64,000 nucleotides of DNA from Psammoneis japonica (lineage: Eukaryota), in the NCBI GenBank assembly GCA_008632985.1, contig QPGO01000146.1:1-64000 (forward strand). Reading direction: 5' to 3'. This document shows positions 28,877-53,707 of this stretch, piece after piece. The notes under the pieces are model-generated. The model did no database searches. It had not been told where the DNA came from and saw only the letters and a list, made by a program, of their open reading frames with translations. Made by a program: the position numbers and the translations under genes. How positions within the stretch are numbered: the stretch's first letter is position 1; each line of letters begins with the position of its first letter.

Positions 28877-29450
28877 TTTTGACTTGGAAGCGACTTGAGG
28901 AGAGTACAGCCCTCGCTCCTCTCGTCTGCATCCTTGCCTACAGACTACATAGAAGAATTGCATTCTCTTAGATTTTAAGTTTGCTAACACAATTACATAC
29001 ACTACATGGCTTTGTTATAGGAATCCCCGTGATTTTTACTGTATTCTTTGCGATTGATATCAAAGAAGTGTCTTGAGAAGCGGATCTCCCAACATGGACT
29101 TGACGTTCCCATCAAGTAGTAACCCTACCAATCCCTTTTGCTGTTCGCCCTCCTCCTTGCCCGTCGTTTTTACTTGGAGGCGATTGGGAGTGCAACCCTC
29201 GCCTCTTGTCTGCATCTTTGCCTACAGACTACATAGAAATGCATTCTCTTGGATTTTAAGTTTGCTAAAAAAATTGTATACCATCCACTACATGGCTTTA
29301 TTATAGCAATCCCCGTGTTCTACTGTGTTCTCTACTGCGATTGATATATCAAAGAAGTGTCTTAAGAAGCGGATCTCCCAACATGGACTTGACGCTCCCA
29401 TCAAGAAGTACCAATCCCTTTTGCTGTTCTCCCTCCTCCTTGCCCGTTGT
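28877..29450. repeat. ~290-bp tandem duplication of the sulfotransferase 3' end and downstream region
   Basis: 28877-29166 resembles 29167-29450; TpA retained in both. Confidence 0.8.
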
Positions 29451-32026
29451 TCCTACTGTAGAATGTGCCTTCCCGGCAAAGTTGTCGGGGTCGGCATTCA
29501 TATCAAACTTTTGAAGCGCTTGAACGAGTTGACCGATTGTTTCGTTTGATTTCGTGGGCAACACGTGCTGAAGGATGTTCCTCCAAGTTTCGTTGAAGCT
29601 CTCGGAGGATTCCATAATGTCCGATAGACTCACCGTGAGGTGACGATCGGGGTATAGTTCTGCAATGGCGGAAGCCACCATCATTTGCTTGATAATCTCA
29701 AGACTTACTAAATGCATTTCCAGTTGCAGGCCCACTTCGGTCGGCAAATCACGGATCGCTTCTTGGATGATCATGTCTTTGCAGTTGTGCTTACCGCATA
29801 GTTCTTGCTTGAATTTCGGATGCTTGCCGACTTTTTCGTGCATCCAACCTTCCTTGCCCAGCTTTGTATACCGGTACGAGCTAAGGATCAAATCGATCGG
29901 ATTCCGAACGAAATGAACAACCAGATAGGTCTTCTCACACGACGCGTATTTGAGCTGCTTCTTGAGTGTCTTGATCTGACTCGTCATGCACTGCTGCAAT
30001 CCGTCCTTGCTTCCGCCTCCATTAGGCCAACTATCCCACCATTTTCCTAGGCAGTCAGACCAGGCGGCATCAATCATCCATTTTGGCCATTGGTTGTAGC
30101 TACGAATCTCCGGCTTCTCGTCCGTTCCGGAACAAGTCATTGCCTTGCCCTTTCCGTCACGGAACAAATTGTTCTCGTTCAGAAATTCCTCCGAGTAGGT
30201 AACCAATCCTTGTTTCTGGAGGAGCGAAGCGACTGACCTTGAAATATCCGTTCCAGTCTTGTGATGCGTCGCAAAGTATACAGTCTCCGGCGGTCCCTTC
30301 TTGGATTTACCCGCCTTAGTTTTCTGCTTTTGTTCCGCATTGGTATTTTCGTGGCTCTCTGAAGCTTTTTTGCGGGCTTCGAGGCGCTCTAGTGATTGGG
30401 TACGGCAGTGTTTGAACCGGAACTCTGGGAACGGTCTCTGTTCCGCATCGGGTCCGGGTGGTTCTCCAGCATCTTGTACAACTCTTGGTTGTAAGGATCA
30501 AAGGCTTCGGCAAGTTTAGCGTGTGAAATACACGAGGGTGTATAGTTGGTTCGATGCTTGGCTCTTTCGTTGAGTTTGACAATCGATTGAGGAGCAACGT
30601 CCTCGCCAACCGGCAAGTCGAGGAAGCGTTGAAGTCGATCCATTAGCGAATTAGGATCCTTAGACAATTCCTCGTATGAGAGAATCAATATTTGCTTTCG
30701 ATCGAAAAACGCCATCCATTCACTGATCCATTTCGAATACATGCCAAAAGATGAGGAAAGTTCCGGAAGCACCTCGCTCGTAACGTAGTTATCAAAGCTT
30801 AGAAGCTTTCCATTTTCGTCAAGGACCCGTTCGGTGTACGGTCGAGGATTCTCACTGGTGTAGTGCTCCTCTGCCATGTGATGGAAAAACGAAAACTCCC
30901 GATCAACAGGCTCACGCAAAATCATAACAATCTTTACGTCATCCTGCGCACCAGCTTGTTTGTAAATATTGGCAACGCGATCAGCATGCGGGAGATAATC
31001 CGGGGTGGCGTCCAACACGTGGGGGCTGTTTTCCCTACAGTGTTTGAAGTGGTTCTTGTAATGACCGAGTCCTTTGGAATACATTTCGTCCTCCAAATCA
31101 AAGAAATGAACTTCCTTGATGGGCTCGCCATTATCTGTAGATTTAGGTTTGCAGACGTTAGCATGGTGAAAGATCCAGCTGGCCACAGCGGTCGTTCCGG
31201 ATTTCTGAGCTCCAACCAACAAGACATTTGGAACTCCTTTGAAAGGAGCAATCGGTTTTGTTTCGTCTTTTTTGGTTCCATCAGAGATGTTCTTCTTGTA
31301 TGCCTTTTCCTTTTTTGAGTTTTTCACCTCTGGCTGCTTTGGATGCTCTTGTTCGATTGGTTTTTCTTCTACTGCTTTTTCTTCGACTGCCTTCTCTTCG
31401 ACTGGCTTGTTTACAGGTTCGTTCGGCATCGCTTGTGAGTTAGGCTTATTCTCTACAGGCTCAGCGACTGGTGTGTCAGGTTTCTCTACACGTTCAGACG
31501 GTTCTACTTGATCAGCAGGTTTCTTTTCGTCGCTGACAAGACCTTCTCCCTTTTTCGCAGTTTCGGGAGGCGTACGGTCTGCGTCTTTCGCGGCTTCCTC
31601 CGTTTTCCTGTTCGCGTGTTCTGGCACGTGTTTGATGTGCGGTGCAATGGCATGCTCTATATTATCAGCCATTAGAGTTTTCCGTAGATGATGTGTATAG
31701 TCAACGCTTGTATGGCCGTGAGACGACGCGGCCATGAGACTCATGGAGCGAATGACCAACATTGAAAAGCCATACAACCCAAAGCCCAACCAAAGCATGC
31801 GCATGCATCGCGATACACAAATCGACAGTGAGCTTCTTTTTCGCTTGGATGAAGATGTAATTGATCGATGCTTTAGGTCTGTTGAGACCTTGAGCTGAGT
31901 AGGAACGGCGCAGCAGTCGCTGGCATTTTCTTTTTGTTCTTTTGAGGGATGTGTACGATGCCTCATAATTTTGGGTTCGACTTCAGCTTCCTGCTTCTTT
32001 TCACTCCGTCTGCCGTCTCTTCTCAT
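29349..32026 (-). CDS. Type II membrane protein with two sulfotransferase domains, copy 1 (one apparent 1-bp frameshift at ~30457)
   Basis: TM segment; domain 1 GAQKSGTT, KEVHFFD, DATPDY, REPVDREFS; domain 2 THHKTGT, VVHFVRNPIDLILSSYRY; adding one base near 30457 joins the ORFs and matches the paralogue (GPDAEQRPFP). Confidence 0.85.
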
Positions 32027-32578
32027 GCCGTTTTATAAACCTTACTCGTTACAATCAAAAGAAGGCTTTTGTCTAGCATGGACCTTCAGACAGGAGAGTG
32101 AGAAACAAGAAGTGCGTCCAATGCATAATTGTGTGACGATGGGGTATTGGACTAAAAATTGGATGTCTGTTGATGACCGCGAATTTTAGAAATTTGTGAC
32201 CAAAACACCGATCATAAAAATATATCCGGTTCTTATACATTTTCACACGTATGATGTATGCATATACAAATATTCTTATAAGTGATGGGTTTTTCCGCTC
32301 ACTTTTTGTTTGGTGCGAACCTACCGTATTTGAAATTACAATGCGCGCAACAAAACAACGCTCATACTCATTTGTATTATACCTCGCCTCACTCGACACT
32401 TCCCTGCCACGGAAAGAAAGATAGTTTGAAAAATCATGTACGTAGATCCAGGATAGACAACGGGGCTTGACAGTGAGAACTATGTCGGATTTAGGTGTAG
32501 CGTGAGTTACTACTACTATGGAGGAAAAGATGCAATATACTGGGCTGTAACTAAAATGGGATTAACTAGCATGTATCT

Positions 32579-34916
32579 CTACATGAGTGTTTTGATGATA
32601 GGGTCGTTCATCATTTGTTTCACTCCTTCTTCTGCCTCGAGGGACGCCTTGTGCTCGTCTGTTTCCTTTTTGCTTGTTTTTCCAGCGGTAGAGTGACCGT
32701 TTCCAACAAAGTTCTCAGGATCAGCGTTCATGTCAAACTTACAGAGCGACTTGACAATCTTTTGAATAAAATCAGGCTTTCTGTCTGGGAAAACTCCACT
32801 AATGATGTTGTACCAGGCTTTGTTGAAGCTCTTAGACGATTCCATGATATCCGACAGGCTCACGGTAATGTGATGTTCAGGATCACCCTTGGCCAAGACG
32901 GCAGCAACCATCATCTGCTTGACGGTCTCCATACTGGTGAGATGCATATCCAATTTCAGTCCGACTTCGGTTGGCAAGTCGCGAACTGCTTCTTGAATGG
33001 TCATGTCAAAGCAGCCCTCGTTGTCTCCGCAATACTCTCCAAGGAATCGTGGGTGACCCACAATATTCTCATGCATCCATTCCTCTTTTCCGAGCTTAGT
33101 GTATCGGTAGGAACTTAGCATCAAGTCGACTGGGTTGCGGACAAAGTGGACAACGAGATAGTTGTCTCCACAAGCAGCCTTTTTCAACTGGTCTTTGAGC
33201 GAATCCATTTCACCCATGATGCACTTCTCAAACAACTTATCGGTCGTGGTTTCGGCGGGCCATTTCTCCCACCACTTTCCGACGCATTTACCCCACAAGT
33301 TATCAATGATCCACTTTGGCCATTGGTTGTAGCTTCGGATTTCAGGAACGCCGCTGCCGCCCAAGCATTTCACGTCCTTTCCGTCTGCCGTTTTCATAAG
33401 ATTCTTTCATCCATCTCCTCGGTAGAGTATTTCGTGTAGCCCTTGAGCTTTAGCAGCGAAGCGACATTTCTTGAAATATCCGTTCCAGTCTTGTGGTGAG
33501 TGGCAAAGAAGACCGTCTTTGGTGCACGTCGTGTCGGTTTGCTCACTTTCTTTGGAGCCGGGACTTGCTTGGCGGGGGACTTTTTGACTTCCTTGGCGGC
33601 CTTGACAACCTTGTCCTTGGCCACATTTTCTTTCTTGTCCTGCTTTGCCGGTTTGCAGCCGGAAATCTGAAAGTGTGGGAATGGTCTCTGCTCAGCATCC
33701 GGTCCCTTGTTTGCATCAAGTCTCTTGTACAATTCATTGTTGGAATCTTCAAACAAATCGGCGAGCTTGTTTTGGGCAGCACACGACGGAATGTTCTTAT
33801 TCACAGACTTGACTTCGAGCGTAGTGCTGGGGATCTTTGAGTCCGATTCAAGGTTCAAAAATTTTTCAAGGCGTCCTCGTGCACTCTCCGTATCATTGGC
33901 AAGCTCATCATAGGACAAGACTAGTAGTTGCCTTCTGTCAAACTTGTCTGTCCATTCCTGGAAGAATTTGGCGTATCCGGCGTGAGACGACTTGAGCTTT
34001 GGAAGAACATTGTTATCCAAGTATCGCTCAAAGTTGATGAATTGTCCCTTTCTGTTTTTCACGGCACTGGTGTACTTTGGCGGATTCGGTTTCTTGGCCT
34101 GCGCAAGGACGTATTGGTACCAGCTAAACTCGCGATCCATTGGTTCACGAACAACGACAACCACCTTGAGTTTCTTAGAAGCGTCGTCTCCAACCTTGTC
34201 ATAAACTTCACGGACACGGCTAGCGTACTGAAAGTAGTCGGACGTGGCGTCGACAATGTGTGTCTTTTTCTCGTCTTGAGCGCAGTGTTAAAGTGTTTGG
34301 CGTACTCTTGTGGAGTGTTCTTGGACGCGTAGTCAGTCGCATCAAAGAAACGAGCCTCCTTGATGGGCTTGCCGCTCTGGATAGACTGTGGCTTACAGAC
34401 ATTGTCATGGTGGAATAGCCAGCTTGCGACTGCTGCAGTTCCTGAAAACTGAGCGCCAACCACAAGAACGTCTGGAATGCTGATGTCGGCGGATCCACTT
34501 GCTTTGGGAACCGCTACAGCTTGCTTTTCATCCTGGTCTTGCTTCTGCTCTTGCTCTTTCTGCTGTTCATCAACATTCACTTCTTCCCCACTGTCTGGGC
34601 TTGCAACCTGCTCTGATGAAGCCTTGTCTTCTTGTCTAGCAGATTCGCCAAGAACTCTGGCAGATGCGGCTGCTAGTTTCTCGCTCAAGGGACTCTTTCG
34701 CAACAAGTACGCACCCTGAAGACAAAGCCCGACAACAACCAGAGGCAAAAGCTTTCTCGAGATTCGACCTACCGTGGACTGTCGTTTACGGCCCTTGGAA
34801 GCATCACTAGCACCGGCAGGAATCTGCCTGGTTGGAAAACATTCTTGATCGTCAATGACCACAATGTGACCCGACTCGGACGCCCTTTTCGCGATTGGGG
34901 AAGAGCGTTGCCTCAT
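32579..34916 (-). CDS. Type II membrane protein with two sulfotransferase domains, copy 2 (apparent 1-bp frameshifts at ~34289 and ~33405)
   Basis: Collinear with copy 1: GAQFSGTA, KEARFFD, DATSDY, REPMDREFS, THHKTGT, VVHFVRNPVDLMLSSYRY. Confidence 0.85.
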
Positions 34917-37227: not shown

Positions 37228-37752
37228 TTAATGAGACTTTGGTTTATCGACTAGACTCGGCCGCCGCATCCATCCAAAGAGAAGACTTGGGATTCCCTTG
37301 ATCATTGTGATGCAAACGCAGTAGAGAAATGAGCCCAAGTCGCTGTAAAGTGTCACGAGTCCCATTTCCCCACCCTTGAGTCCACTGTCGTAGTGGATGT
37401 TGTGCGTAACGCGGTCCTCTAGCTTTAGCAGTTTGGCAGACGGAAAGGTCCAAAACGACAAGATTCGTGTTCCTCGTTCACCAATGTGATCATTGCACTT
37501 GGAGCATTTGCCTCGCTTGGATCCTACCAAGCCCGTCATGGCTGTGGTACTGTCATACTCGACGGGACCCGCAATGGCAACCTGCCAAGCCCAAAACATG
37601 CATGACGAATTGTAACTTGTTTTGCAATAGCCGCGGCAGTGGGAACAGTGGCAATTGAAGAGAAAGAACGGATCTCGGCTGGTTTCGATAGAAACTGAGC
37701 CACAAGCACAAAAGTCGTGATGAACACTTCTTTTTTGAGATTTTTTCGTCAT
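37228..37752 (-). CDS. GFA/CENP-V (Mss4-like) zinc-binding protein
   Basis: CACG...CHCSHCR...CSKC motif pattern in a 174-aa ORF. Confidence 0.8.
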   Translation of the reverse strand: MTKKSQKRSVHHDFCACGSVSIETSRDPFFLFNCHCSHCRGYCKTSYNSSCMFWAWQVAIAGPVEYDSTTAMTGLVGSKRGKCSKCNDHIGERGTRILSFWTFPSAKLLKLEDRVTHNIHYDSGLKGGEMGLVTLYSDLGSFLYCVCITMIKGIPSLLFGWMRRPSLVDKPKSH

Positions 37753-38527
37753 CTGAATGCAGATGGGTCAACAAAGTTCTCTCAAGAGCTTGCGCATTTG
37801 CCGTTTCCGTTTACGCTCAAAGCTCTGCGTGCCGGAGGGAAGATTTATTGGGAAACCTCGGGAAGAACGGAAAATTTTGGCGGGAAATCCGAGACTCGTA
37901 GATGTTGGTACAGATTCTACGCAACGGTTACCAAGAATGCAGTGACGTAAGTACATGGTCGTCTCTTTCCGAGAAATCGTGCAACAGGAATGTCAAAATG
38001 AAAGCCCAGCCAGCTTCAAAGCACTGCATTTGTTGATAGAAATACCTCTTCACCACTGACCCAGCTAGAGTGCATGCTTCCCAACATTCTGCGAAGCTGA
38101 ATAGGATGTGGTTGACATTGGATCATCAGAGACAGCTCACACTTTCCTTGGAAAAACCAGGGGCGACACAGCCAGTCCATTGCAGTGTCCTTTTTCTGAC
38201 CAACTCCAGAACCAGCCACAACCAACAATGTTTTGCATCTCAACTGTCAATGAAGGAGATGGGGTTTCCGGCTTTAAAGTGTCTCTTTGGTCACCAGCAC
38301 CACAACTGTCTTGTCGCTAAATTGAAAATGTGGGCCAAGACTGCGTTGATGCTGAGTCACGATTGGTGTCACGACCCACGACTCATCCGGAACAGAAACG
38401 CGGATGAACATTGCCGCTGTCATCATTTGTGCTCTTCCTTGACCTTGCATTTACAGTTCAATGCACTCCCAAATGAGGTTTCCTTCATTCGACAGCGTGA
38501 AACAGGTGGTCCACGGCATTGCGCAAC

Positions 38528-39579
38528 ATGTCCGAAAACAAGAAGGGGCATCTTCCGCTCAAGGCAGCGACAGCACAGGTTGTCTCTGAAGCAAATGGCG
38601 CTGTCGTCGAGGACGTGGAAGAAGTCGCGGCAGTGGGTGTGGTTCAAATTGTTGCTCCGGCTGATCTGCCTGAAGGCTTTTGCTTTGAAGCTGAGGTGGA
38701 AGGGGCGCCCATCTACATCACTGTGGTGCGCACGGCGCACGAGTTTTGTTTTGTTTCACATGTCGTTGTCGCTTGTACGAGCAGTTGGACTGATGTGACT
38801 TTCACTTTTGTGCATGGCCAAAAGGTGGCATCGAGAAAGGAAAAAGATTTTTGGTGGCGCCTGCTGAAACAACCTTGAGCCATGAGAGAACCAACACCCC
38901 AGTTGGAAGGTGGAAGGATGATCTCTGTGACTGCTGTGTGCATGGCTGTTGCCACGCTCAGATGTGCCTTACAATCTGGTGCCCCTTGTGTGAGTTCTTC
39001 ATGCTGTCATAGAAGCAACTGTCGCCCTGAACAAAAGGAGGGGCTCACAATGGTGCGTTTTCATGCCGCTGCAGGCGCGATTGCACAAGTGATGCAAAGG
39101 CCAAACCTGAGCTGGTGTGGAGATCATGTGCGAGGGTCCGCAGGCACGAATGCCCACAGAGTCATGTTCCATGTTGCAGCTGCATGCATTGTAGCTCATG
39201 TCATGCTGCCTGTCATGATGATGGCCAGTCTCCAGCTGGCATGTCATGACAGTGGATGCCACAGGCATTCCAATTCGCGCGGGACTCAGACGGATTGTCA
39301 AGCCAGCGTCAATGGTCTGGATCAGCTTGGTGTGACACTTCACTCTTGTTCAGGCCTGCACCTCCTTGTGATTGCATCCAGGACACGGCATTGCTTTGCC
39401 AAAAATGCTCCATTCTAGCCTCCGGTTGTTGCGCGGATTGTGAAGATGCATGCTGCATCTTTTGGTGCGGGACGTGTGGCATCTGTCAAATGGCTCGTCA
39501 CACTGCGGACTACGATGTGCACCCCGCTGTGTGCTGCGAGCCAATGGGGATTCATCCCGATGCTCCGATCATTGTCTGA
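38528..39579 (+). pseudogene. PLAC8-family gene copy 1, intron-containing, TpA-hypermutated
   Basis: VAPADLPEGFCFEAEV, GRWKDDLCDCC..GCCH...IWCP, IAQVMQR, CEDACCIFWCGTCGICQMARHTADY. Confidence 0.8.
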
Positions 39580-39685
39580 GTAACAAGTTTTGTTTCAATT
39601 TCATGCCTCCCTTTGTTCTTAAAGTGTCGACCCTCGTGCATGTCATTTTAAGAGCTGCCTGGTCATGCTTCCATTTGTTGATCGC

Positions 39686-39961
39686 TGACAGGATTTGAAC
39701 AGGATTTGGGTGCGCGCGAAATGTCGCATGCTGTTTGGTTTGCCACGCACAGTTTTGTGTGCTTCAGTTCCGCGTGTTCGCGTGCAATGCAGTTTGCTTT
39801 CGAGCCACAAGGCTCACAAGAATGACAACAGCAGCCCGATCATGCCGACTCACACGTCTTTCGGCTCCTGCAATGGTCTCTGAGCGGAGACACATCTGCC
39901 ATTTAGACAGCAGCAAGGAGTCATTGTTTGAATTCTTGCCATTTGCCTTCAATTTCTGTCA
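39686..39961 (+). repeat. 5' LTR (276 bp)
   Basis: TGACAG...CTGTCA; direct repeat of 46483-46757. Confidence 0.95.
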
Positions 39962-40862
39962 GATCAACAGTCCTCGTCGTTGATTTACCGACGACGCTGC
40001 TTCAATTCTGCGTGGACCTCCATGTGCATTCTACATGCATCGGCAAGTCTGCGCACGTTCAATGCCAGGCATCGGCAGGAATTTAACGTCACCGTCAAGT
40101 CTCCTTGCCGCTGGACATCTGGATTGATTGCACCACCTTTGATCGCTGAAGACATGCATCAACGGTCACATCCAAGTCCATCCTTGACCCTCATCCCTTG
40201 ACATGCCCATTCATCGGTTAACGGTCAAGAACCCCACATGTTCAAGGATCTTCATCGCTGAAGACACACATGCACACACATCTTCATGGCCAAGAACTTT
40301 TGCCCACTCTTCGGACTGCAGTTTTGCTGCCACTCTACAAGCACACCGAGTCCATTGTGCCTGATCTACCCCGGACTGCTGGTGCTCCACAGTTCCACCA
40401 GGTCCACGAGGACGACTGTGAGAGCAAGCAGCCGTGGTTGCAGCCTGCGTTGGGGCGAGGGTGTTTTCCCGCGTTTGTTCGTTCGTCCACAGCGCCTGAC
40501 GCCCACGTCAACTGGCCAGCCTGATCGGGAAATCCAACCGACATAAAATGAGAACGGTTCGGGGGTCTTGTCCACCTCTGGTCAGCTCACCTGCAGGGGT
40601 TTACAACCCGCTGCTCCGCTCGCAAGCAACCCAAAGCACCGCTGGCTGTGGGTTCGGACGTGCCGGCACAACTCTGCGGACCGGACAGGAAGTTCAGCAC
40701 TTGACAACGAACGGGATGGCACAGCCCGGCGACTTCTGATTTTAAGGCAGTTCAAGATTTCAAGTCAAGTCCATTTCAAGTCAAGTCTGTTCTCACCCAA
40801 GTTTCAAGTCCACCTTCGCTTCCCAACAAGAATTGCTTGTCCGGACACCACTTTTGTCTGCC

Positions 40863-43800
40863 ATGGTTCTCACTCGTCAGCAACAAACCGATGGTTTCGA
40901 GCACGTTGTTGGAACCGTGCTTGCCCAAGGTGCTGGGAGCCCTCTTCATTTGGCTTTGGCCCAAGACGGCACGGACTCGCATCAAGAACTGTTCACGTTC
41001 ATGCCGCCCCAAATCGACTCGCTTGAGCACGACAACGGCACCAATGTGATCCCTTTGCCCCGCGGTTGTAAGAACATGTTAGCAGCTCTAGTCAGTCTGT
41101 GCATTGTCAAAGCACACGAAGGTCTTGACGTTGCCAATGACTCCTCGTTGTTCGCGCATGACGAGTTCCTTGCCTGCCGCCTCAGCCCCGACTGCATGTC
41201 TTCTGTGTCCGTCGGCAGCTCACCCCTCGCACCTCCGCATGTCACCAACCCGACCAAGGCATGCGACCCGGTACGAGACTTCAAGCGAGGCATCAAGCGT
41301 GACCCCACCGCTTTCACGGCTCTCAAATCCGACAAGCAGTGGCACACTTGGCACACCTCACTTGTGGCACAAGCCCGTGCCCAAGATGTCGAGTGCGTTC
41401 TAGACTCGTCGTACAAACCGACCAGCCCCGAAGACAAACTGCTCTTTGCTGAACAGCAAAAGTGCATGTTCGCCGTCTTCAAACGCGTCCTTCTCACCGA
41501 CAAGGGCAAGGCTCTCATTCACGAAAATGTGGGGTCTTCTGACGCCCAGACCGTCTGCCGCGCCTTGTCTGAGTGTGCGCTCGCCTCCACCCATGCATCT
41601 GTCGAGTCCTCCACCTTGCTCACGCACCTTGCCACCGCACGTCTTGGTGACGGCACTTGGAAAGGTCCAACCCACGGGTTCATCCTTCATTGGCAAGATC
41701 AGTTGCACAAGTGCGAGGCACTCATCCCGGCCAGTGACCACTTCTCTGAAGGACAGAAGCACGTCATGCTCGAGAATGCCGCACACCCTGTCGAGGAACT
41801 CCGTGCTGTCAAGAACCAAGCTGATCAGCATCGCACGCAGAGTGGCAAGAGCCTCACATGCGATCAATGCTGTGGCTTGCTCCTCTCCGCGGCGGCTCAA
41901 TGCGACAGTGCGTTTCAACCCAAGATGACACCTCGAGCTCCCCGACGTGCCATACATGCACACGACGTCTGCTCCGAGGAACCGTCCGACGATGTGTTCT
42001 ATGACATTGACAGCGACATTGACGTCCTTCAGGCCAATGCTGCCCACACCCGTGGTCCCAGCCTCACCGGTGACCAATGGAAACGTCTCCCTCCCGACCA
42101 CCAACGGATTTGGGATTCGTCGCCCCATTCCTCCAAGGCGATCATCCTTGAGCATTCTCGTCCGCCTCCCTGCAACCCGCGAGCCAGCAACTGCCATGAG
42201 TCCATTGCGGCCAACCTTCACGACCAACGCCTTGGGAGTGACGGTGATGTCAACTTGTCCAACACGACTCCTGCTGACTCTGGTGACCCCGCTCCAAATG
42301 TGGGTGCCACTTCGGACAATCCCATCCTGGCACACCTCACCAAGCGCAAGCCACTGCCACCCGGTGATCTGCAACGTCTGTTGTCTCCTAACCAAGCCCC
42401 CCAACGCCAGTCGACCGGGGCCATCCGCCGCTCCCTCTGCCCCGCCAGCTCCTGCCGATGACACAGAACTTAACGGCGGCACTTGCCGCCGCGTTGACAA
42501 CCACAATGTCATTTGCTCTGCCTCTGCTCATCGCTCCACACGCACTGGTGCTCCAGTTGATCATGGGGCCAACGGCGGCATTGCTGGCGACGACGTTCGT
42601 GTCATTGCACGCACCTCTTGCCAAGTCGACGTTCAGGGCATTGACGACCATCAATTGGTGGACATCCCCATTGTCACCGCTGGTGCCGTCATTGAGACCC
42701 AGCGTGGTCCCGTCATCGCCATCCTCCACCAGCATGCATGCACGGGCAAGGGCAAGACCATTCACTCCTGCGGCCAGCTCGAATGGCACAAACAGGATGT
42801 CAACGATCGCTCTGTCAAGGTGCCCAATGGCTTGCAACGCACTGCCACTCCTGATGGCTGTGTCACCCCCATTGACATCAAGGGCAGCCTGCCTTGTGTT
42901 GCCATGCGACCTTGCACTGATGCCAAATGGGACACCCTGCCCCATGTCATCCTCACCGGTGATGACACATGGGATCCTTCCGTCCTCGATCACTCTGTCA
43001 CTGACGACGACCAGTGGCACGACGCGATCTCTGACCTGCAGGACGATCCCACTGCCAACCTGTTTGACGAATGCGGCAACTGCCGTCATCGTGTCGTCGT
43101 CAACGAGACCATCATGTCCGCTTCCTTGTCTGCCGATCACACGTCCGCCCTTGATGATCACCTCATTCCGAACAACGACGTGTTCTGCGAGTGTCATCTG
43201 CATGCGATTGACCCCAAGGATGACGACGTTCCGCCCCCGGAGCGCACTGTGCAGCCCAAGGACCCCCCCTTCGAGTCTCTTCGGCCTTGCTTTGGCTTCC
43301 CACCTGCCGATGCGGTCCGTCGCACTTTTGACTGCACCACGCAGTGCGTCCGCATGCCCGCCGGTGCACACCTTAGGAAGGCCCACAAATCACCCAACCC
43401 CGCCCTTAATGTGCACCGCCGCAACGAGCCCATCGCCACTGACACCATTTGTGCCGACACCCCGGCCGTCGACTCTGGTTGCACCAGCGCCCAACTGTTT
43501 GTTGGCACCGAGTCTACCGTCACTGACGTCTGCGGCACCAAGACGGACAAAGAGTTTGTCAACACACTCGAGGATCAGATCCGTGAGTGTGGTGCCCCAT
43601 CCAAACTCATTAGCGACCGTGCTCAAGTTGAGATCAGCAACAAGGTGCTCGGGATTCTACGAGCCCTCTTCATCTCCAGCTGGCAAAGTGAGCCTCACCA
43701 GCAACACCAAAACTTTGCCGAGCGTCAACACCAGACCGTGAAGAGCATGGCGAACACTGTCATGGATCGTTTTGGTTCGCCTGCCCACACATGGCTGCTG

Positions 43801-46535
43801 GCGCTCATGTGCGTGTGCTTCATGCTCAACCACACAGCGTCCCCACATCTCCACTGGTGCACGCCCCTTGAGACTCTCACTGGCTCCACCCCGGACATCA
43901 GCCCATTGCTTCGCTTTCACTGGTGGGAACCCGTGCACTTCCACCTCGATGACTCCGATTGGCCGTCCGAATCCCATGAGTTGCGTGGACGCTTTGTTGG
44001 CATTGCTGAGCACGTCGGCCACCAGATGACCTTCAAGATTCTCCCTGACGAAACTCAGAAGATCCTCTGCTGGTCCAACGTACGTTCCGCTGCCACCGAT
44101 CCTGCCGTTCGAAACCTGCGTCTTGATCCTCCTGATGGGGAGCCACCTGAACCCATCATCAAATCTCGCCATGACGACAACCCCGTCGATTCTCCTGATG
44201 GGGAGATCAGGACACCCAAGATGCCAGTTTTCGATCCGCAAGACATCATCGGACGCACCTTCCTCATGCAGCCACAAGAGGATGGACAACGCCACAGAGC
44301 TCGCATCGTCAAGGCCGTCGAAGACCACGAATGGAAAGTGAACGGCAATCCCGAGCTCACTAAGTTCATCTGCTCTGTCAACAACGACGAACACACGAGG
44401 AAGTCCTTGCCTGCAATGACATCATGAATCACATTGAGCAAGAAGACGAAGACACTGCTGTTTGGAAATTTCGATGCATCGTGTCACACGAAGGACCTCT
44501 GAAGCCTCATGACCCAACCTGGAAAGGCTCAAGCTACAACGTCATGCTTGAATGGGAAAGTGGGGAGATCACGTCCGAGCCTCTTGCCATCATCGCCAAG
44601 GATGACCCCGTCACCTGCGCCATCTGTGCACGAGAGAATGGACTTCTCGACACTGATGGCTGGAAGCGGTTCCGCACCATCGCGAGGCGCCAGAAGAAGC
44701 TATTTCGCATGGCCAACCAAGCCAAGCTTCGCTCCTTCCACACTGCACCTCGCTGCAAGTGTGGGTGCGAAGTTCCCCGGAACTGCAAACACGCCATGTC
44801 ACTGGACGAACGCAATGGCAACCGCAAATGGGGAGACGCAACTAATCTCGAGATGGACCAACTCGGTGAATGCGAAGTCTTCCATGACTGCGGGCCCTTC
44901 GAGTCTTCCACTCCTCCTGCGGGACACAAGAAGATCCGAGTGCACCTGGTGTGTGACGTGAAACACGATGGTCGCCACAAGGCACAACTCGTAGCCGATG
45001 GGCACCTCACGGACACACCCATCGACAGTGTCCACTCCGGAGCAGTCTCCCTCCGTGGCCTTCGGCTGATGATTTTCCTGGCCGAACTCAACGAGTTGGA
45101 GACATGGGCCACCGACATTGGAAATGCCCACCTTGAAGCCACCACCAAGGAGAAGCTCTACATTGTAGCTGGACCCAAATTTGGCAAACTCGAAGGACAC
45201 ATCCTTGTCATCCACAAGGCCCTGCATGGACTGCACAGCTCCGGTCTCCGCTGGCACGAGCGCTTCGCCGACTGCCTGCGAGCTGAAGGCTTCTTCCCCT
45301 GCCGCGCCGAACCCGACATTTGGATGCGCAGGAACGGCAACCACTGTGAATGCATTGCCGTTTGTGTGGATGACCTCGCCATTGCCATGAAGGACCCTCA
45401 ATCTTTCGTCGATGCTCTCACGGAAAAGTGCAAGTTCAAGCTCAAGGGTGCGGGACCCATTGAGTTCCATCTGGGTTGCGACTTTTCCCGGGATCCCGAC
45501 GGCACCTTGTGCCTGTCTCCGTGCAAGTGCATCGAGCGCATGGTCAACAGCTGCACCCGACTGTTTGGGGAGAAACCCATCACCAATGCCCTGTCACCTC
45601 TGGAGAAGGGTGACCACCCCAAACTGGACACTTCCGAACTGCTGGAGCCCGATGGCATTCACAAGTTCCAGTCTCTTGTTGGTTTGCTCCAATGGGCAGC
45701 GTCCCTTGGTCGAATTGACATTGCCACGGCCGTCATGTCACTCTCTAGCTTCCGAGCTGCGCCCCGTCAAGGCCACTTGGATCGTGCCAAACGCGTCTGT
45801 GGGTGCCTCTCCAAGATGCAACACGGCGCTCTCCGCGTTCGCACGGAAGAGCCCGACTGTTCGGATCTCCCTGCTCCGGCCTGTGAATGGATGCATTCCG
45901 TGTACGGCGAAGCAGAAGAGATGATCCCGAAGGACGCTCCACCGCCCCTTGGCAAGTTCGTCACCACCACCCACTGTGTCGATGCAAACTTGCACCATTG
46001 CATGCTCACCAGACGCTCTGTCATGGGGATGCTCCACTTCCTCAACAAATTCCCGGCTGATTGGTTCTCTAAGAAGCAAGCCACCGAGGAGACTGCAACC
46101 TGCGGGTCTGAATTTGTTGCTGCAAGGACTTGTGTCGAGCAGATTGTCGACCTGCGCATCACCCTGCGCCACCTTGGCATCCCGATCCGTAACGTCAGTT
46201 ACATGTTCGGTGACAACAAGTCGGTTGTAGACAGTGCCACCATCCCGCACTCCAAGTTACACAAGCAACACACCGCACTGTCGTTCCACCGTGTGCGTGA
46301 GGCAATTGCCTCTGGCTGCCTTGAGTTCCACTTCATCGAAGGCTCCCGCAACCCTGCTGACATTCTCAGCAAGCATTGGGGTTGCTCCCAAATCTGGGAC
46401 CTTCTCCATCCCCTCATGTTCTGGAACTTCATTCCATCCGAAGTCGAATCTGTTTCTGTGGCTCCTCAAGCAAACTGGGGAGTGACAGGATTTGAACAGG
46501 ATTTGGGTGCGCGCGAAATGTCGCACGCTGTTTAG
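40863..46535 (+). pseudogene. Copia gag-pol, hypermutated, frameshifts at ~42400 and ~44395
   Basis: gag DFKRGIKRD; protease VDHGANGG; integrase IATDT..LISDRAQVE..QNFAER; RT DIGNAHL, KALHGL, CVDDL; RNase H CVDANL, FGDNKSVV, NPADILSK. Confidence 0.95.
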
Positions 46536-46757
46536 TTCACCACGCACAGTTTTGTGTGCTTTAGTTCCACACGTTCGCGCACAATGTAGTTTGCTTTCGA
46601 GCCACAAGGCTCACAAGAATGACAACAGCAGCCCGATTGTGCCGACTTGCACGTCTTTCGGCTCCTGTGACGGTCTCTGAGCGGAGACTCATCTGCTGTT
46701 TAGACAGCAGCAAGGAGTCATTGTTGAGTTCTTGCCATTTGCCTTCAATTTCTGTCA
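46483..46757 (+). repeat. 3' LTR (275 bp)
   Basis: Direct repeat of the 5' LTR, preceded by the PPT and followed by the TSD. Confidence 0.95.
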
Positions 46758-46972
46758 ATCGCCATTGTCATTCAGCACATTCTCAATTTTTCTAAATGAA
46801 ACGATGCATTGTGACCACATGTGGCACCAACGTCAACCTGTTTTTGAGTTGAGCACTGCTTGTGCGTGGGAATGTTCTTTGGCAGTTTTTCGCATGTTGG
46901 CCAAAAAGGTCTCTTTCTTTGCCATTGAAACTCGGAAAAATGCAAAGCAAAATGGCAAGAAGTGCCACAGCA

Positions 46973-47172
46973 AATGAAGAAAGCTGCAATTTGATGATGC
47001 AACGGCTCTGCACCACAGTTTTAAAACAGTCAAGGGAATTTAAGGTGCAAGAATTGATGTGCCGCAGCAAATGAAGAAGGTGGCACATGAAGAAAGCTGC
47101 AATTTGATGATGCAATGGCTCTGCACCACAGTTTTAAAATGGTCAAGGGAATTTAAGGTGCAAGAATTGATG
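46973..47172. repeat. ~87-bp direct repeat pair
   Basis: 46973-47059 resembles 47086-47172; differences are CG/TG and CA/TG. Confidence 0.85.
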
Positions 47173-48626
47173 GTGGGAGAGTCACACGGAGAGCAGTGGG
47201 GTGGGAGCATGCCACAGAGTGAGGGTGCGACAGTGCTGACAGATGGGTTGGAGGAAAAAGAAGGAAGAGAATGACAGCAAAAAAAGTCTTGACATGAGGT
47301 GAGGTGAGCAGTGAGGGCAAGGCCAAAGTCAAGACTGAGGAGATGGGCAGCCCAAGATTGGGGAGTGGATGAGTGATGGGAGAAGCCAAGGTGTAGAAGG
47401 AGAGTTGTTTCCAGGCAATGTTGGTGTGGGTGAAGATGTTGATGGGAGAAAGCAAGGAGGTTTGGAAAGCTGGGAAGGGATCTTCTGAACTGAAGAACTC
47501 ATCAGGAACAATCCAGTGTGGCTTGGGAGGAGGGGCGAAATGGAGTCAAAGGAGGATGTGAGCAAGCTGAAGAAGAAGGTGTGGAAGTGGTGGCCAAGGC
47601 CACCCAGATGATCAGTGGCAAAAAAAAATGGGAGCAGACAGGCTTGGTTGATCAAGTTGATGACAGAAGCACCAGTGGCAGAGGAGCAGTGGTGTCCTGA
47701 GGTTCAGCAAGAAGGCCTTGAGCAGCAGGCAAGTCAGGTGCAGGGTGGGAAGCAGCTGGAGGAGCAGCAACATCAATGAGAAGAAAGTGTCATGCAGAGG
47801 AGGCACCGGGAGGAGCAGAGCTGGGGAAGAGCTGGGTGCCAGTGCCAGCAGGGCATTTGGGAGGATGCACAGAGAGCAGGCCATCTGGCTTCTTGAGAAA
47901 GACATGACAGCAGGAGCAGCAAGAGCCGGCTGGGGATCCAGCACAGGATGTTGATGATGGAGCAGATGGTGTCTCAGCCATTGGTCAAAAAATGCAGTGA
48001 ACAGTGCCAGTGCACAGTGCAGCAGGGCCCTGACCAGCTGCCAGAGGTTGTCTTGTGCTTGCTCCATTGATGAAATCTTTCTTTAGAAATCAAACCCAGC
48101 CAGCTTTGAAGCACTGTGCATTTGTTGATGCTGAGGACACCTTTGCACCACTGACCTGGCCAGAGTGCATGCTTCCTCACATTCTGCAAAGTTTGCTTCA
48201 CAGTGAGATCCAGTCTACATCAAATCATCAGAGAGACCACTCACCATTTTCTTGGAAAAACTCAAAAACACAGCCAGTCCATTGTGGTTTCTCTTTTTTT
48301 TGCCAACTCCAGAGCTGATCAATGTCAACAACATTGAGTGTTTCAGCCATCAATGGAGAAGAGGGGGGCTCCAGCTTTGGTGTGTGTCTTTGTTTGCCAC
48401 AACACAGCTGTTGTGTTGTGCTGGTGCTAAAAGCAAGCAGGCCAAGGCTGAGACCATTTGTGCTGAGTTGACAGCCACAACTGTGCATGTGATCAAGTCA
48501 AGACTTGCAGCTCATCTGCGCCACCAAACATGAGGATCATTGGACTTTGCCTTCACAGCTTCATTGACTCCAAACAAGGCTTGCTTCATTTGACAGCATG
48601 AAAAAGGCACAGCGCAGCATGGTGCA

Positions 48627-49570
48627 ATGCCCAAAACAAGAAGGGGCATCTTCTTCCACTTGAGGTGGTGACAGCACAGGTTGTCTCTGAAAGAAATGAT
48701 GCTGCTGTCAAAGCTGCAGAGAAGAAGTTGTGGTGACAGGTGTTGGCCTAAATTGCTGCTCCAGCTGATCCACCTGAAAGTGCTCACTTTGAAGCTGAGG
48801 TGGCAGCACACACCTGTCTGCTGTCTGCACTGCTGTGACACACACAGCACATGAGCTTTGTTCTGTGGCACATTTTGTTTGCTTGTGCAAACAGCTGAAC
48901 TGATGCAACTTCCTTTTTTTGCAAAGCCATGAGGTGGTGTTGAGAAAGAAAAAAGGCTTTTGGTGGTGCCCGCTGAAGAAACCTTGAGCCTTGAGAGACC
49001 TGCCCCAATGCCCCAGTTGGAAGGTGGAAGGATGATCTCTGTGACTGCCACACATCTGGCAGTTGCCATGCTCAGATGTGCCTTGCAATCTGGCTCCTAA
49101 CATGCAAATTCTTTGTGCTGTTGCACAGAAGCAGCTGTCACCCTGAACAAAAGAAGCACCTCACACTGGACAAGTGATGTGCAAAGGTTGAACCTGAGCT
49201 GGTGTGGAAATCATGCTCAAGGATCCACATGCCCCAATGTGCACAGAATCACATTCAGCATTGCAGCTGCATGTGTTGTTGCTTGTGTTGCACTTTCTCT
49301 TGTCCACCAGGTCAGCTCAATGTGCCACTTTGCTCTTGTGCAGGCCTGCACCTCCTTGTGATTGCATCTGGGATTGTCACTGCATCTGCCAAAAATGTGC
49401 CATTCCAGCCTCAGGTTGTTGTTTGGGTTGTGAAGATGTGTGCAGCATCTTTTGGCACATGACATTTGGCATCAGTGAAAATGGCCTGTCACATTGCAGA
49501 ATGCAGCATGTGCTGTGCCATGTGCTGTGAGCCAATGGGGATCCATCCTGATGCTCCCTTCACTGTCTGA
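48627..49570 (+). pseudogene. PLAC8-family gene copy 2, more degraded
   Basis: Collinear with 38528-39579, including ~500 bp upstream (38020-38520 resembles 48110-48620); has lost both TpA and CpG. Confidence 0.8.
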
Positions 49571-51366
49571 GAAGCCAGCTTGACTCAATTTGCAGGCCCC
49601 CTTCCCCGGGCTTTGAGTTTTTTGACCCTGGTGAAATTCACCTCAAAAGCCACCTGGCTGCCCATTCATTTTGTCAACTGCAATTGCACTCAGTGCACCT
49701 TCAATTTGCCCACATGCACCAATGAGTTGCAACAACATCCAGTGAAGTTGAGTGCCAAGTGGGCAAATTCTCTTGCAGTTTTTGTGTGTTGGCCCAGAGG
49801 TGCCTTTCTTCCCTGTTGAAATTTGACCAAATGCAAAGCAGAATGGAGTGTAATGCTGCAGCAGATGCAAACAAAAAAAGCTGAAATTTGATGATGTGAT
49901 GGCATTCCACACATTTGCAGCTCATGGACAGAAGACACTTGCTCTGCAGCACAATGACATGTGCTGTGTTTTTTTGTTTTGCAGGGATCTTTCAACCAAG
50001 CCACTCAAAAACAAATGAGGGAAATTGCTGTTGATGCGAATGGCATCTTTGTCAATCCCATTGATGAGACAGGTCACAGACTCTGCCTCTGGGAGTTCAT
50101 GATGGACCAAGGTCCTCACAGGTTCTTTCCCCACAGTTTGTCTCATTTTCACAGCTGGCATCCTTCTCACAACCTGCCATGCCTTGTGTGCATCCTGTGA
50201 CAATTGCCTCCAGAGAGAAATGGGTTTCTGTCATTTGAGCAGTCAAGATGATGGACAAGGTTGAGTGTGCTGCCCAGCAGAGATGGCAGCAGTGCACATT
50301 GTCCCTGCAATGGCACCACAAAGGCCAGCCACAGAAAGGAGGGCAAGGGCATGGCTCAAGCCATCATGCCAGCCAGCCTTCCTGAGGGCTTTCTTTTGTT
50401 GAAATGAAAGTTGAGAAAAAGGCCATGTCTGCCACAGCAGTGGGCACTGTGACCACATTGCTTGACCAATGATGCTGTGGCCAGCAGCACTTCATTCATC
50501 TCACCACCCTCTCTCATCATGAAGAAATCCCACTGAACCATCTTCAATGTTTTTTCACAAGTGCAGCCAACGGGCAGTGTTGAGGAATGAAAAAAATTGT
50601 GGCATCACCTGAAAAGACTGGCAGCACCCAGGAGATGCTGTGCACTTGCCAGACAATGGAAGGATTCATGATCTGTGAGAGCTGCTTTGACTGCCCTCAG
50701 AAAGATCAGCAGCACCTTGTGCTTTGACACACCTGCTGTGCAAGTCATGGTTGCTGTCATCACCAACTTTGTCTCCAACTCATGAGTGCTTTGTCTTGCT
50801 GTTTTTTGTGCAATGCTCTGCACAAGTGATGCAAAGAATGAATCAGGTTTGGGGCACACAAGTCCTTCACAGTGGTTTGTGGGAGCTCCAATGCTTGTGA
50901 AACAATGCTCATGCTTGCAACCATCTTTGTCTTCATTGACAATGTGCTCCTCCAGCTCTGGGTGGGAAAAGCAAAGGAAGGCTCAAGCAAAAGACTTTGA
51001 TGGAGCTGAAAGTGTGTCAAGGTGAGGTTTTTGTCAGAAAAGACAAAGTGCAGCCCAACGGAGCTGGTGGCAGCACATGGCGGCTCTTCATCAGACAGCA
51101 ATGCCATGGAGGCCATCCACAGAAGGGAGGACAACAAGGGCATGATTGAGCTTGCTGCACCAGCTGACCATCCTCCAAGGGCTTTTCTTTTGATGCAGAA
51201 GTTGAGAAGCAGGCTGTCTCTGTCACTGTGGTGGGTGCTGGTGATGTTGCATGAAACAGCAACAATGTGGCTGGTGATGTGCAGTGTTTTGTCTTGTTGT
51301 CCTCTTGTTGCCAAGAGATCCTGCCAAACAGTCTTCAATGTTTTTTACATGTGCAGCCAAAGCAAG

Positions 51367-52139
51367 GGTGGCGCTGAGAAAGGAAAAAGATTCATGGTGT
51401 CTCCTGAAGAGATCACCAGCAGCCATGGGCATTGAAGGATGACATCTGCAAAAGCTGCTCTGATTGCTCTTGCAACAGTTGGTGGTGCCTCACGCTTTGG
51501 CACCCAGCTTTCAAGTTGCGGTTGTTTGTCACACCACCAAATCTGTCTCTGATTGACAAACAGTTGATCTCATCACATTTTGTGCAACACAAGGCATGAT
51601 TGCACAAATGATGCAACAAAATGAATCTAAATTGGTTCATGGATCTTTCACCACAGTCCAAAACAACATTCATGCTTGCAACCCTCTGTGTCTTCATTGA
51701 CAGTGTGCTGTCTCTTGCATGTTGGGGGCTTGTGGTTGGGGGGCTTGGGTCTGAGACACTGCAGGACTGTCAAGCTGCCATTTCCACCACAACAACAGCC
51801 AGTTCAATTCATTCTCTGCATTTTTGCTGGCGTGCCTGCACCTGCTGACCATTGCTGTCAAGACCCATCATTGCCTTCTTCAATTCATTCTCTGCATTTT
51901 TGCTGGCGCGCCTGCACCTGCTGGCCATTGCTGTCAAGACCCATCATTGCCTTCATCAGAAGCATGCCATTCAGGTGGAACACTGCAATGAGTGTTGTGA
52001 AGAAGTTTGCTGCTCCTTTTGATGCCTGAGGTGCGGCATTTGCCAAACGGCTTGTCACACAGCCGACTGCGCCCCTCGCTCTGCCAAGTGCTGGGAGCCA
52101 ACAACGGGGAGCGACCCCAGTGCTCCTGTCATTGTCTGA
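51367..52139 (+). pseudogene. PLAC8-family gene copy 3, 5'-truncated
   Basis: GGAEKGKRFMVSPEE start and ...GCTCCTGTCATTGTCTGA end match copies 1 and 2; internal ~68-bp tandem duplication at ~51803-51955. Confidence 0.65.
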
Positions 52140-52663
52140 GAAGCAAGTTGTTTCAAATTGGACCCTTCATCAGACAGACCATCCAAGAAAATTGGTTTCC
52201 TGTCTGATGCTGTGATGGTGTTCAATCTTTTCTAATTGGCTCTTGGCTCAAGCATGCCACGACACAGCAAACCTGGCTCGGATCTTCTGGTGAAATCAAG
52301 CAGAGTGGAGCTGCGCGTGGTGCTGTGGCATGCCCACTGGCATGAAATGATGCAAGAGAAGAAAGCCAAGGTAGTGTGCTATGTTAGCTGACAAAGAGAA
52401 ATCAGATGTCAGATTACTCTCGACACTCCATCCCTCTCCACCGGCATTGTAAGAACAAAGCCATGCGATGGAAGTTGCTCGCACAGTACACCCGCCTATC
52501 ATGCACCCTACCATTTTGATTTTGATCCTGCACACTGACTCATTCATGCCAGAAGCAATGTTGCAACTTGCGACGCGACCATGATGTGGCATCATAAAAC
52601 AGACGACACATCTACTGTAGCTCCGTCATCTATCTACTAAGCGCAAAACGAACAAGTTCCACC

Positions 52664-53707
52664 ATGAAGGACGTTTGCCTCTCTTTGAGTCTGATGGTCG
52701 TGGTCGTCATGGCGTCCATTTTCTCAAGTGCTTCCGCGTTCTCGTCGCTAGGAAAAAAGTCGACGGCTCGCGACGTATTGTACGAATTAAACAGTGGAAA
52801 CAGGCTGGCATCCTTTGTGCAGAAGGATGACGCAACGGCAGTTGTTACCGGAGGAAATAGTGGAATTGGATCTGAAACCGTAAAGACGTTGGCCTTGACG
52901 GGCATGAAGGTCGTACTTTGTGCTCGCAATGAGGAATCGGCACAAAAGACGCTTGAAAAGATCCCCGATTGGTGTCGAGATAACGTTTCCGTGCAAAAGT
53001 TGGACCTGGCAGATATGGATTCCATTCAACGCGCGGCTCAAGAAATTCAAGAGACACACACGTCGATTGACCTCTTGTGCAACAACGCGGGTGTCATGGC
53101 TCTGCCCCAACGCCAAGAAACCAAGAACGGCATTGAAATGCAGGTGGGAGTGAATCATGTCGGACACCACATGCTTACACGGTTGTTACTCCCCCATTTG
53201 AATGAAAACGGACGTATTGTCAATGTAGCGAGTTCGGCGCATCAAATGAGCAAGGGCGATCGCGATTGGAATTCAGAGCAATCCTATTCGGCATGGGGCA
53301 CATATGGAACAAGTAAACTTGCAAATGTATTGTTTGCCAAGAGCTTGCAAGAAAAGCTCAACGAAGCTGGACGAAGCGACATTAGCTCGGTGTCGTTACA
53401 CCCAGGAGTTATCAAAACCAATCTTTGGAGAAACACTCCTTCGCTGCTACAGTTTGCGACCAATCTTTTTGCCGACAAGTCTATTGAGCAAGGCGCTGCT
53501 ACGAATGTGTACTGCTCGCTTGTAGATAAGCTAGAAGGAGGCGAGTATTACCAGGATTGTCAAGTGACAAGTACGTATCCGACAGCTCAAGGAAAAAGCA
53601 TTCGTCAAGACTTGTGGACCTACACCGAGAATCTAATCAAAGAGAAAGGATATGATTTGCCCACAAGTTTGTTAAGGGAGACGGAAACAGCAGTTGAATT
53701 AGTGTAA
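52664..53707 (+). CDS. Plastid-targeted short-chain dehydrogenase/reductase (retinol dehydrogenase-like)
   Basis: Signal peptide plus ASAF motif; TGGNSGIG, NNAGVM and YGTSK catalytic motifs. Confidence 0.92.
   Translation: MKDVCLSLSLMVVVVMASIFSSASAFSSLGKKSTARDVLYELNSGNRLASFVQKDDATAVVTGGNSGIGSETVKTLALTGMKVVLCARNEESAQKTLEKIPDWCRDNVSVQKLDLADMDSIQRAAQEIQETHTSIDLLCNNAGVMALPQRQETKNGIEMQVGVNHVGHHMLTRLLLPHLNENGRIVNVASSAHQMSKGDRDWNSEQSYSAWGTYGTSKLANVLFAKSLQEKLNEAGRSDISSVSLHPGVIKTNLWRNTPSLLQFATNLFADKSIEQGAATNVYCSLVDKLEGGEYYQDCQVTSTYPTAQGKSIRQDLWTYTENLIKEKGYDLPTSLLRETETAVELV

Follow-up and report, generated by a model that had tools for sequence, protein, structure and literature searches.

A TpA-directed mutator that probably acts on silent, transposon-anchored DNA and PLAC8 gene copies in a diatom

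Introduction

What marks one copy of a host gene for mutation while a near-identical working duplicate survives? The question is raised by a PLAC8 gene array within a 64,000-nucleotide stretch of a diatom genome (C146:1-64000, hereafter the window), in which gene copies and their flanks are strongly depleted of TpA. A preliminary description of this DNA had offered two answers, namely that kb-scale duplication itself triggers the process, as in RIP, or that mutation spreads over several kb from inserted transposable elements (TEs), and had expected either to constrain the expansion of gene families.

In RIP, known from Neurospora and other ascomycetes (RID/DIM-2), a duplication triggers the process and both copies are mutated; it needs a RID/DNMT4-type methyltransferase and the sexual cycle. 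Its leak into flanking DNA is short (400 bp class; PMC7296669). A closer precedent in mutation type is Bigelowiella natans, for which TpA-only A>G/T>C hypermutation of a single-copy, silent viral region, a ~1000-fold raised de novo rate and genome-wide TpA-poor clusters with TE domains were reported, and an ADAT-type deaminase was proposed (Mettrop et al., bioRxiv 10.64898/2026.01.13.699255). In diatoms, DNMT5 has been linked to CG methylation of transposons, and DNMT4 is described as RID-related, sometimes chromodomain-bearing and of unknown function (PMC9998398). The best-ranked matches of a literature search included no report on TpA hypermutation in diatoms, and the consulted passages of PMC2806351 mention neither RIP nor dinucleotides. 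New here are the diatom lineage, the coupled loss of CpG, and host-gene copies as victims with intact partners; the mutation type itself has already been reported in B. natans.

Results

TpA-poor DNA is confined to bounded blocks

We searched an assembly of 91 Mb and read two contigs, C146 and C83 (552 kb), as a whole. A diatom host fits 24 matches to silicon transporters (SIT), 82 LHC matches and the named relatives of the PLAC8 genes. Against a window gene background with a TA observed/expected ratio (o/e) of ~0.58, the region from 38 to 52 kb ranged from 0.00 to 0.16 per kb at a GC content similar to the rest; GC of ~50% on both sides ruled out a composition artefact. The distribution of TA o/e on C146 and C83 was bimodal, with affected DNA restricted to bounded regions, and a two-state model assigned 44% of C146 (17 blocks) and 42% of C83 (21 blocks) to TA-poor blocks.

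Old sulfotransferase-region repeats (29417-33518, 63%) and an inverted ankyrin gene pair (58485-60977, 60%) in the window are not TA-poor. Further host-like genes lie within mutated blocks, namely a Cys-tRNA synthetase piece (L118:8581-8997, minus strand), an exonuclease (L101:2066-3139, minus strand) and a TPR repeat protein (L105:6332-7294, minus strand). Compared with the run contigs, the assembly has single-base gaps at window positions 35660, 35664, 36478, 36571 and 39394, so that frameshifts need caution.

Four PLAC8 copies are depleted of TpA

The depletion described for the PLAC8 segments and their flanks held throughout, with P ≤ 5e-8 for the copies against the window gene background (7 TA vs 32.9 expected at 38528-39579, P = 5e-8; 2 vs 35.0 at 48627-49570; 1 vs 27.8 at 51367-52139), and with 7 TA vs 19.7 and 2 vs 21.0 expected in the flanks at 38020-38520 and 48110-48620, and 0 vs 6.8 and 1 vs 6.8 in those at 46860-46995 and 49760-49895. 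The preliminary description had counted three copies in the same orientation; all are TA-poor, but the number is four (Table 1), since a truncated remnant with 0 TA vs 30.2 expected lies between its second and third, and an exon near 51110-51235 places the start of the last copy before the 51367 given originally. Alignment confirmed the duplicated flanks (38002-39053 / 48092-49169 at 68% identity and 46866-47013 / 49759-49910 at 71%) and gave a further block at 39322-39613 / 49312-49603 (76%).

Table 1 Features of the PLAC8 locus and its borders (window positions)
Feature	Position	Strand	Evidence or o/e values
GFA-domain gene (PF04828), unmutated, left bound of block	37231..37767	-	
5' flank of copy 1, duplicated with copy 2	38002..38527	+	alignment, TA counts
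PLAC8 copy 1, three exons (38528-38725, 38818-38988, 39077-39579)	38528..39579	+	TA 0.12, CG 0.64
3' flank of copy 1, left of copia	39580..39685	+	
Ty1/copia retrotransposon, LTRs 39686-39961 and 46483-46757	39686..46757	+	RVT_2 match; TA 0.13, CG 0.84
Remainder of copy 1's 3' flank, right of copia	46758..47180	+	TA 0.14, CG 0.43
Old multicopy repeat between copies 1 and 2, fragment of long-ORF family	47181..48091	-	TA 0.04, CG 0.09
5' flank of copy 2	48092..48626	+	alignment
PLAC8 copy 2, old pseudogene with frameshifts and deletions	48627..49570	+	TA 0.03, CG 0.02
3' flank of copy 2, duplicate of the split 3' flank of copy 1	49571..49930	+	alignment
PLAC8 copy 3, truncated remnant, new relative to the preliminary description	50241..51030 (remnant ~50250-50950)	+	0 TA, 1 CG
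PLAC8 copy 4 (third copy of the preliminary description), old pseudogene	51031..52139	+	conserved Tyr columns read His, Cys, Arg
Short-chain dehydrogenase gene, unmutated, right bound of block	52598..53707	+	block edge near 52370

Judged by their sequence, all four window copies are pseudogenes of a cellular gene. Their PLAC8 identity is indirect: they share exon-by-exon homology with diatom proteins and intact paralogues of the PLAC8/DUF614 Cys-rich family, being colinear with these PF04749-positive paralogues down to the Cys-rich stretches and a common exon layout, and differ from them in their pseudogene state. A PF04749 search returned no match over the cut-off for the window's PLAC8 pieces, as expected for mutated, exon-split frames, and a protein search with 39250-39576, a weak test, found nothing. 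Among 73 family proteins fetched, all match copy 1, 66 match copy 4 and 21 match copy 2; these database proteins are distant relatives, with ~35-50% identity in the two alignments inspected. Copy 1 runs for ~289 codons without a stop, its first intron lacks an AG acceptor, and its one frame break, at 39394, is absent from the contig of run X1 and from copy 2. The original view of these units as cellular genes rather than TEs was upheld: the unit is not multicopy, and DNA searches bearing on multicopy or Helitron cargo gave only C146 and one piece of 123-181 bp on C87.

Copies 1 and 2 were mutated independently

Alignment of the first two copies gave 45 reciprocal TG/CA doublets, compared with 6, 3 and 4 for control doublets, which indicates that the unit was largely unmutated when copied and that each copy was mutated on its own. 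These doublets exclude that the unit had been mutated prior to its duplication, and the intron-bearing genes and changes on both strands rule out RNA editing ahead of reverse transcription. TA>TG/CA changes thus arose in the copies after duplication, and the conserved tyrosine positions agree: among six family columns in which Tyr makes up 50% or more, the residues are Phe, Tyr, His in copy 1 and His, Cys, Arg in copy 4, and copy 1 carries 2 Tyr and 17 His in 289 codons vs 4.1% Tyr and 2.0% His in the family. Where the two copies align, TG/CA stands in copy 2 at 12 of 15 TA and at 41 of 52 CG steps of copy 1.

An intact orthologue or allele of copy 1, the comparison proposed at the outset, was found neither among the run contigs nor among the 73 database proteins; polarity therefore rests on the doublets, the conserved Tyr columns and the other duplicate pairs. 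The contigs of run X1, which may be the assembled sample, show the same mutated state of copy 1 as the assembly. Two of the five differences between X1 and the assembly in copy 1's unit nevertheless fall on its 17 remaining TA (read CA and TG; P ~0.004), a hint that the mutator is still active. Run X2 shows a GT..AG joint in the cyclin gene and covers the GFA gene but not copy 1; we drew no evidence from this gap in coverage.

Copy 1 was probably mutated late

Transversions between copies 1 and 2 amount to 5.5% of coding and 14.8% of non-coding columns, the latter perhaps inflated by misalignment, and the two copies still have 29 exact 21-mers in common. CpG was lost as well, and unevenly, with CG o/e rising from 0.02 in copies 2 and 3 through 0.09 in the old repeat, 0.22 in copy 4 and 0.64 in copy 1 to 0.84 in the copia element. 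The coding alignment of copies 1 and 2 contains eight non-triplet gaps besides 39394, which we assigned to copy 2 because copy 1 is in frame with the intact paralogues. Copy 1 appears to have stayed a working gene for most of the time since the duplication, ~0.5 kb from an old block, and to have been mutated late. Against this, transversions by codon position (18/245, 12/247 and 11/249) are not raised at the third position, and last-exon lineage counts of 8 for copy 1 and 12 for copy 2 do not clearly differ, so that the case for protein-level selection on copy 1 comes down to its intact frame.

The copia element splits copy 1's unit 106 bp past the stop codon, with a 5-bp target duplication on both sides. 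It is young (1 transversion in 275 LTR columns), and its sibling on C83 differs from it by 0.3% transversions over 6.8 kb. The larger CpG loss in copy 1 suggests that this copy was mutated somewhat before the copia arrived, with the proviso that rates may differ. The old repeat between copies 1 and 2, with 41 matches in the genome, is the likely anchor of the old mutated block; its ORF family may belong to a retroelement, given RVT_1 on 14-43% of the members of matching atlas clusters, which we treat as a lead only. The left edge of the mutated block falls between 37953 and ~38100, with the last dense TA at 37952 and the first reciprocal doublets of copy 1's unit at 38017 and 38062.

Three mutated host duplicates each have a member of this ORF family directly to their left, on the minus strand (window 47172-47939, C146:172594-174816 and C83:160452-162571), a hint that the family makes or marks local duplications. 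For the window's right flank, no other haplotype was found in the assembly.

Duplication is not sufficient to set off mutation

Alignments of at least 300 bp on C146 and C83 (n=62, automatic cut-off, redundant and not independent, TEs included) were TA-poor on both sides in 29 cases, on one side in 18 and untouched in 15. From these contigs we chose six one-sided pairs, four of which have a host Pfam family (kinase, VOMI/F-box, PLAC8, WSD). The intact partners show a TA o/e of 0.47-0.75, and 212 of their 270 TA read TG (103) or CA (109) in the mutated copy, with 17 kept and 8 changes in reverse. In the PLAC8 pair on C83 (11 kb apart, 1 kb long, 2.7% transversions), 39 of 47 TA were changed with 0 reverse, and the source copy retains its 47 TA, non-coding ones included.

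Six SIT loci of 89-99.85% identity over 1.5-3.4 kb were untouched, without a doublet in 26 partly redundant alignments. Two SIT copies 25 kb apart on C6 (3,389 bp at 99.85%) kept 129 of 129 TA, although this pair may be too young for mutation or an assembly duplicate. In Neurospora, duplicates of 65% identity over 100 bp count as RIP-visible (PMC7296669), so that the SIT and C83 PLAC8 duplicates would be RIP targets. Together, these data establish that duplication is not sufficient to set off mutation.

A pair of contig ends, C29:1-32.5 kb and C183:116.5-148.8 kb, was dropped as a duplication test, being ~99% identical over 32 kb and probably a haplotype pair; inside a TA-poor patch near C29:24.8-26.8 kb, their differences are mostly transitions among TA, TG, CA and CG. 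At C38:226.3-230.3 kb, three SIT domains share one unmutated 1511-codon frame.

Position, rather than sequence, appears to decide mutation

Spread over several kb from TEs, as suggested in the preliminary description, was borne out in one part and contradicted in another. Mutated host copies do lie in blocks with repeats, six of the seven blocks that hold such a copy also holding a recognised repeat, and the distance from a mutated host copy to the nearest such repeat inside the block reaches 3.7 kb or more; the block at 22918-26509, with a mutated duplicate, has no recognised repeat in a comparison set of ~1% of the genome. However, three intact PLAC8 genes on C83 stand only 0.25-0.65 kb from mutated blocks, and a SIT gene 0.9 kb from a sister LTR is unmutated. 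Outer flanks of 30 copia-LTR loci began TA-poor for at least 202 bp in 31 of 31 cases and stayed so for the full 1.5 kb in 16; of the 15 that ended earlier, 7 match other repeats in a 960-kb sample and 8 (202-961 bp) match none there. We rejected the TA-poor flanks of the sibling copia as a case of spreading, as they are mostly other repeats genome-wide (77 and 39 matches).

A tandem array straddling a block edge on C83 is mutated only inside the block, where 11 of 12 TA were changed, and the 5' segment of a copia-family element that lies outside a block retains 39 TA, 30 of which are changed in the window's copia. Position, not sequence, is what decides mutation in these comparisons. The pattern fits a short spread into working DNA, with blocks that extend through silent DNA as far as the nearest working gene.

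The shortened copia-family element at C146:112127-115975 has an unmutated 5' internal segment (114878-115655) and is otherwise mutated; two other copia-family copies also keep TA just behind the 5' LTR. A 280-bp MITE-like repeat with internal inverted symmetry and 77 genome matches lies at C83:301844-302125, and a 1869-codon Helitron RepHel frame at C83:172871-178477, where the mutated block is young. When 138 and 117 frames of mutated blocks were scanned against Pfam, few elements could be named.

Discussion

A mutator of silent DNA and its alternatives

The reading that we favour, with a probability of roughly two in three, is that a TpA>TpG/CpA mutator targets silent chromatin anchored on transposons, and that host copies are drawn in after they become silent. 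Such a mutator would work at the DNA level and replace A by G in TpA steps of either strand, giving TG or CA, with adenine deamination by a TadA/ADAT-type enzyme as the most likely means. CpG would decay at a slower pace in this DNA, in keeping with methylated cytosine. The mutator would operate on putatively silent, transposon-anchored blocks and halt at working genes. The PLAC8 array would have been born by old local duplications, after which copies 2-4, adjoining the old repeat, would have fallen silent and been erased first; copy 1, then an in-frame working copy ~0.5 kb from the block, would have been engulfed much later, slightly before or around the landing of the copia. Duplication would be relevant only since a spare copy can go silent at no cost, and the loss of a copy would become irreversible without family expansion being blocked. 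The data show the type and direction of mutation, the independence of the copies, the order of events, the one-sidedness of the pairs, the untouched duplicates and the sharp edges; what we infer in this model is the signal (silence or chromatin), the anchoring on transposons and the enzyme. Telling against it are the closeness of copy 1's mutated edge to the homology edge, the flat codon-position counts, the block at 22918-26509, the doubtful age of the most similar SIT pair and the ordinary look of the deaminases surveyed; in addition, lineages whose working copies were mutated could have been lost to selection.

Guidance by homology offers another way to mark copy 1: small RNAs from a dead copy, or pairing with it, would target a paralogue up to the edge of the common sequence once that paralogue is untranscribed. 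A silenced paralogue would then guide adenine-deaminating machinery in trans, amounting to an RNA- or pairing-guided DNA adenine editor that polices host gene families. We consider this unlikely, even though the mutated zone of copy 1, which by the doublets begins between 37953 and 38017, stops no more than ~50 bp from the homology edge at 38002, block edges frequently fall at the ends of duplicated or repeated segments, and the 29 21-mers common to copies 1 and 2, like the visibility to RIP of 65% identity duplicates in Neurospora (PMC7296669), would be compatible with recognition. Spreading halted at the GFA promoter gives a similar edge (by our estimate ~1 in 8 by chance for a 780-bp spacer); younger and more similar source copies are clean even in non-coding DNA (C83 PLAC8, kinase); units of one tandem array differ by position only; and the B. 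natans target is single-copy (10.64898/2026.01.13.699255). Blind spread from any TE (here the copia) across several kb, in combination with selection against cases in which a needed gene was hit, strikes us as distinctly improbable. It would account for the uniformly TA-poor start of the LTR flanks (31/31, 16 of them throughout 1.5 kb), for the similar residual TA of copy 1 (0.12) and copia (0.13), and for the insertion lying just 106 bp behind the copy 1 stop codon, but the sibling's flanks are themselves repeats, as are 7 of the 15 ending flanks, the other 8 fall short of the 1.7 kb needed, the intact PLAC8 and SIT genes stand well within its reach, and CpG loss is greater in copy 1 (0.64) than in the copia (0.84).

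Two further proposals carry very little weight. A RIP-like trigger, in which DNA-DNA pairing of kb-scale duplicates leads to mutation of both, draws on the independent mutation of copies 1 and 2, on the 29 of 62 alignments TA-poor on both sides (many of them TEs) and on a gene that combines a chromodomain with a DNMT domain, as reported for RID-related DNMT4 (PMC9998398). It is largely refuted by the six pairs polarised fully one way, the untouched SIT duplicates, the mutation of copy 1 long after its duplication and a polarity opposite to that of RIP, to which the 18 one-sided and 15 untouched of the 62 alignments may be added with the caveat of an automatic cut-off and non-independence; this part of the preliminary description was not sustained. 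Nor do the data support the predicted constraint on gene-family expansion, given 10 PF04749 matches without stops genome-wide alongside the 24 SIT and 82 LHC matches. It is similarly hard to credit that the copies were made by, or born inside, a mobile element, as cargo or as an element-made local duplication, and so are TE DNA to the cell. The recurrence of one minus-strand ORF family left of mutated host duplicates at three places, a Helitron ORF 7.8 kb from the C83 PLAC8 fragment and a 180-bp PLAC8 piece at the edge of a TA-poor island on C87 speak for such an origin, yet the unit does not occur in many copies, copy 1 adjoins unique genes without a break and has kept its frame, and the doublets show that the unit was unmutated when copied. 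An element could thereby explain how copy 2 arose, but not the mutation of copy 1.

Relation to known systems and implications

The process resembles that of B. natans in changing A>G/T>C at TpA on both strands within bounded regions. It differs in its diatom host, with 42-44% of two contigs affected to near saturation, in the mutation of host-gene copies with intact partners as controls, and in the loss of CpG in the same blocks, the main text of the preprint containing neither 'CpG' nor 'diatom' (10.64898/2026.01.13.699255). With RIP it shares dinucleotide-specific, near-saturating transitions in repeats; however, RIP turns C into T at CpA and so makes TpA, whereas TpA is destroyed here (212 TA>TG/CA vs 8 reverse), pairs are one-sided and close duplicates are spared. 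TA-poor flanks without a recognised repeat measure 202-961 bp here (~1% of the genome compared), against the 400 bp class of RIP leakage. CG methylation by DNMT5 would explain the slower CG>TG/CA decay and could offer a mark for the TpA mutator, but leaves the loss of TpA itself unexplained.

These comparisons narrow what a barely described genome-defence mutator recognises: its target would extend beyond foreign DNA without being defined by duplication. Copies of ordinary host genes are erased singly while near-identical working duplicates survive, so that diatoms may gain a RIP-like benefit without RIP's ban on gene duplication. A silent copy would be lost for good, its tyrosine codons, splice site and CpG gone. 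The slow loss of CpG and the fast loss of TpA could serve as a two-rate clock for dating pseudogenes, and the intact/mutated pairs as reporters in the hunt for the enzyme; a natural TpA-specific DNA adenine editor would have technical interest. For annotation, caution is advised, as the loss of TAA and TAG creates long false reading frames in TA-poor blocks.

Mutation chemistry and candidate enzymes

In the six pairs, the changes are even between strands (103 TG and 109 CA from 270 TA). The A>G rate per strand is 0.42 after T vs 0.06-0.10 after other bases. Among the TA that remain in blocks, ATAT is absent (0, compared with 972 outside), and retention is 5-fold in excess for TTAA and 3-fold for CTAA, indicating that a pyrimidine after TA favours mutation. 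Such a context preference is enzyme-like, and TadA-type enzymes have a preference that resembles it; we put the odds that the enzyme is an adenine deaminase at about even. A survey gave nine deaminase matches, none of them identified as an unusual adenine deaminase; six places were read, with ordinary-looking motifs, which we take to be TadA/ADAT, dCMP-deaminase and RibD-like. Candidate TadA/ADAT-like genes lie on C38, C26, C79 and C17.

At C79 ~87.3-88.8 kb (L155:319-1791, minus strand), one frame joins a MafB19-deam/dCMP_cyt_deam zinc deaminase with DIOX_N and 2OG-FeII_Oxy domains; its atlas matches are dioxygenase clusters only, at 0.78, and it possibly serves nucleobase salvage, which makes it a weak mutator candidate. 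DNMT matches number 27. At C34 ~43.4-45.7 kb (minus strand; L096), a C5 methyltransferase domain has a chromodomain upstream of it, an arrangement described for some diatom DNMT4. Several DNMT genes lie within TA-poor DNA (L093-L095, L099; C297, C301), perhaps carried there by mobile elements.
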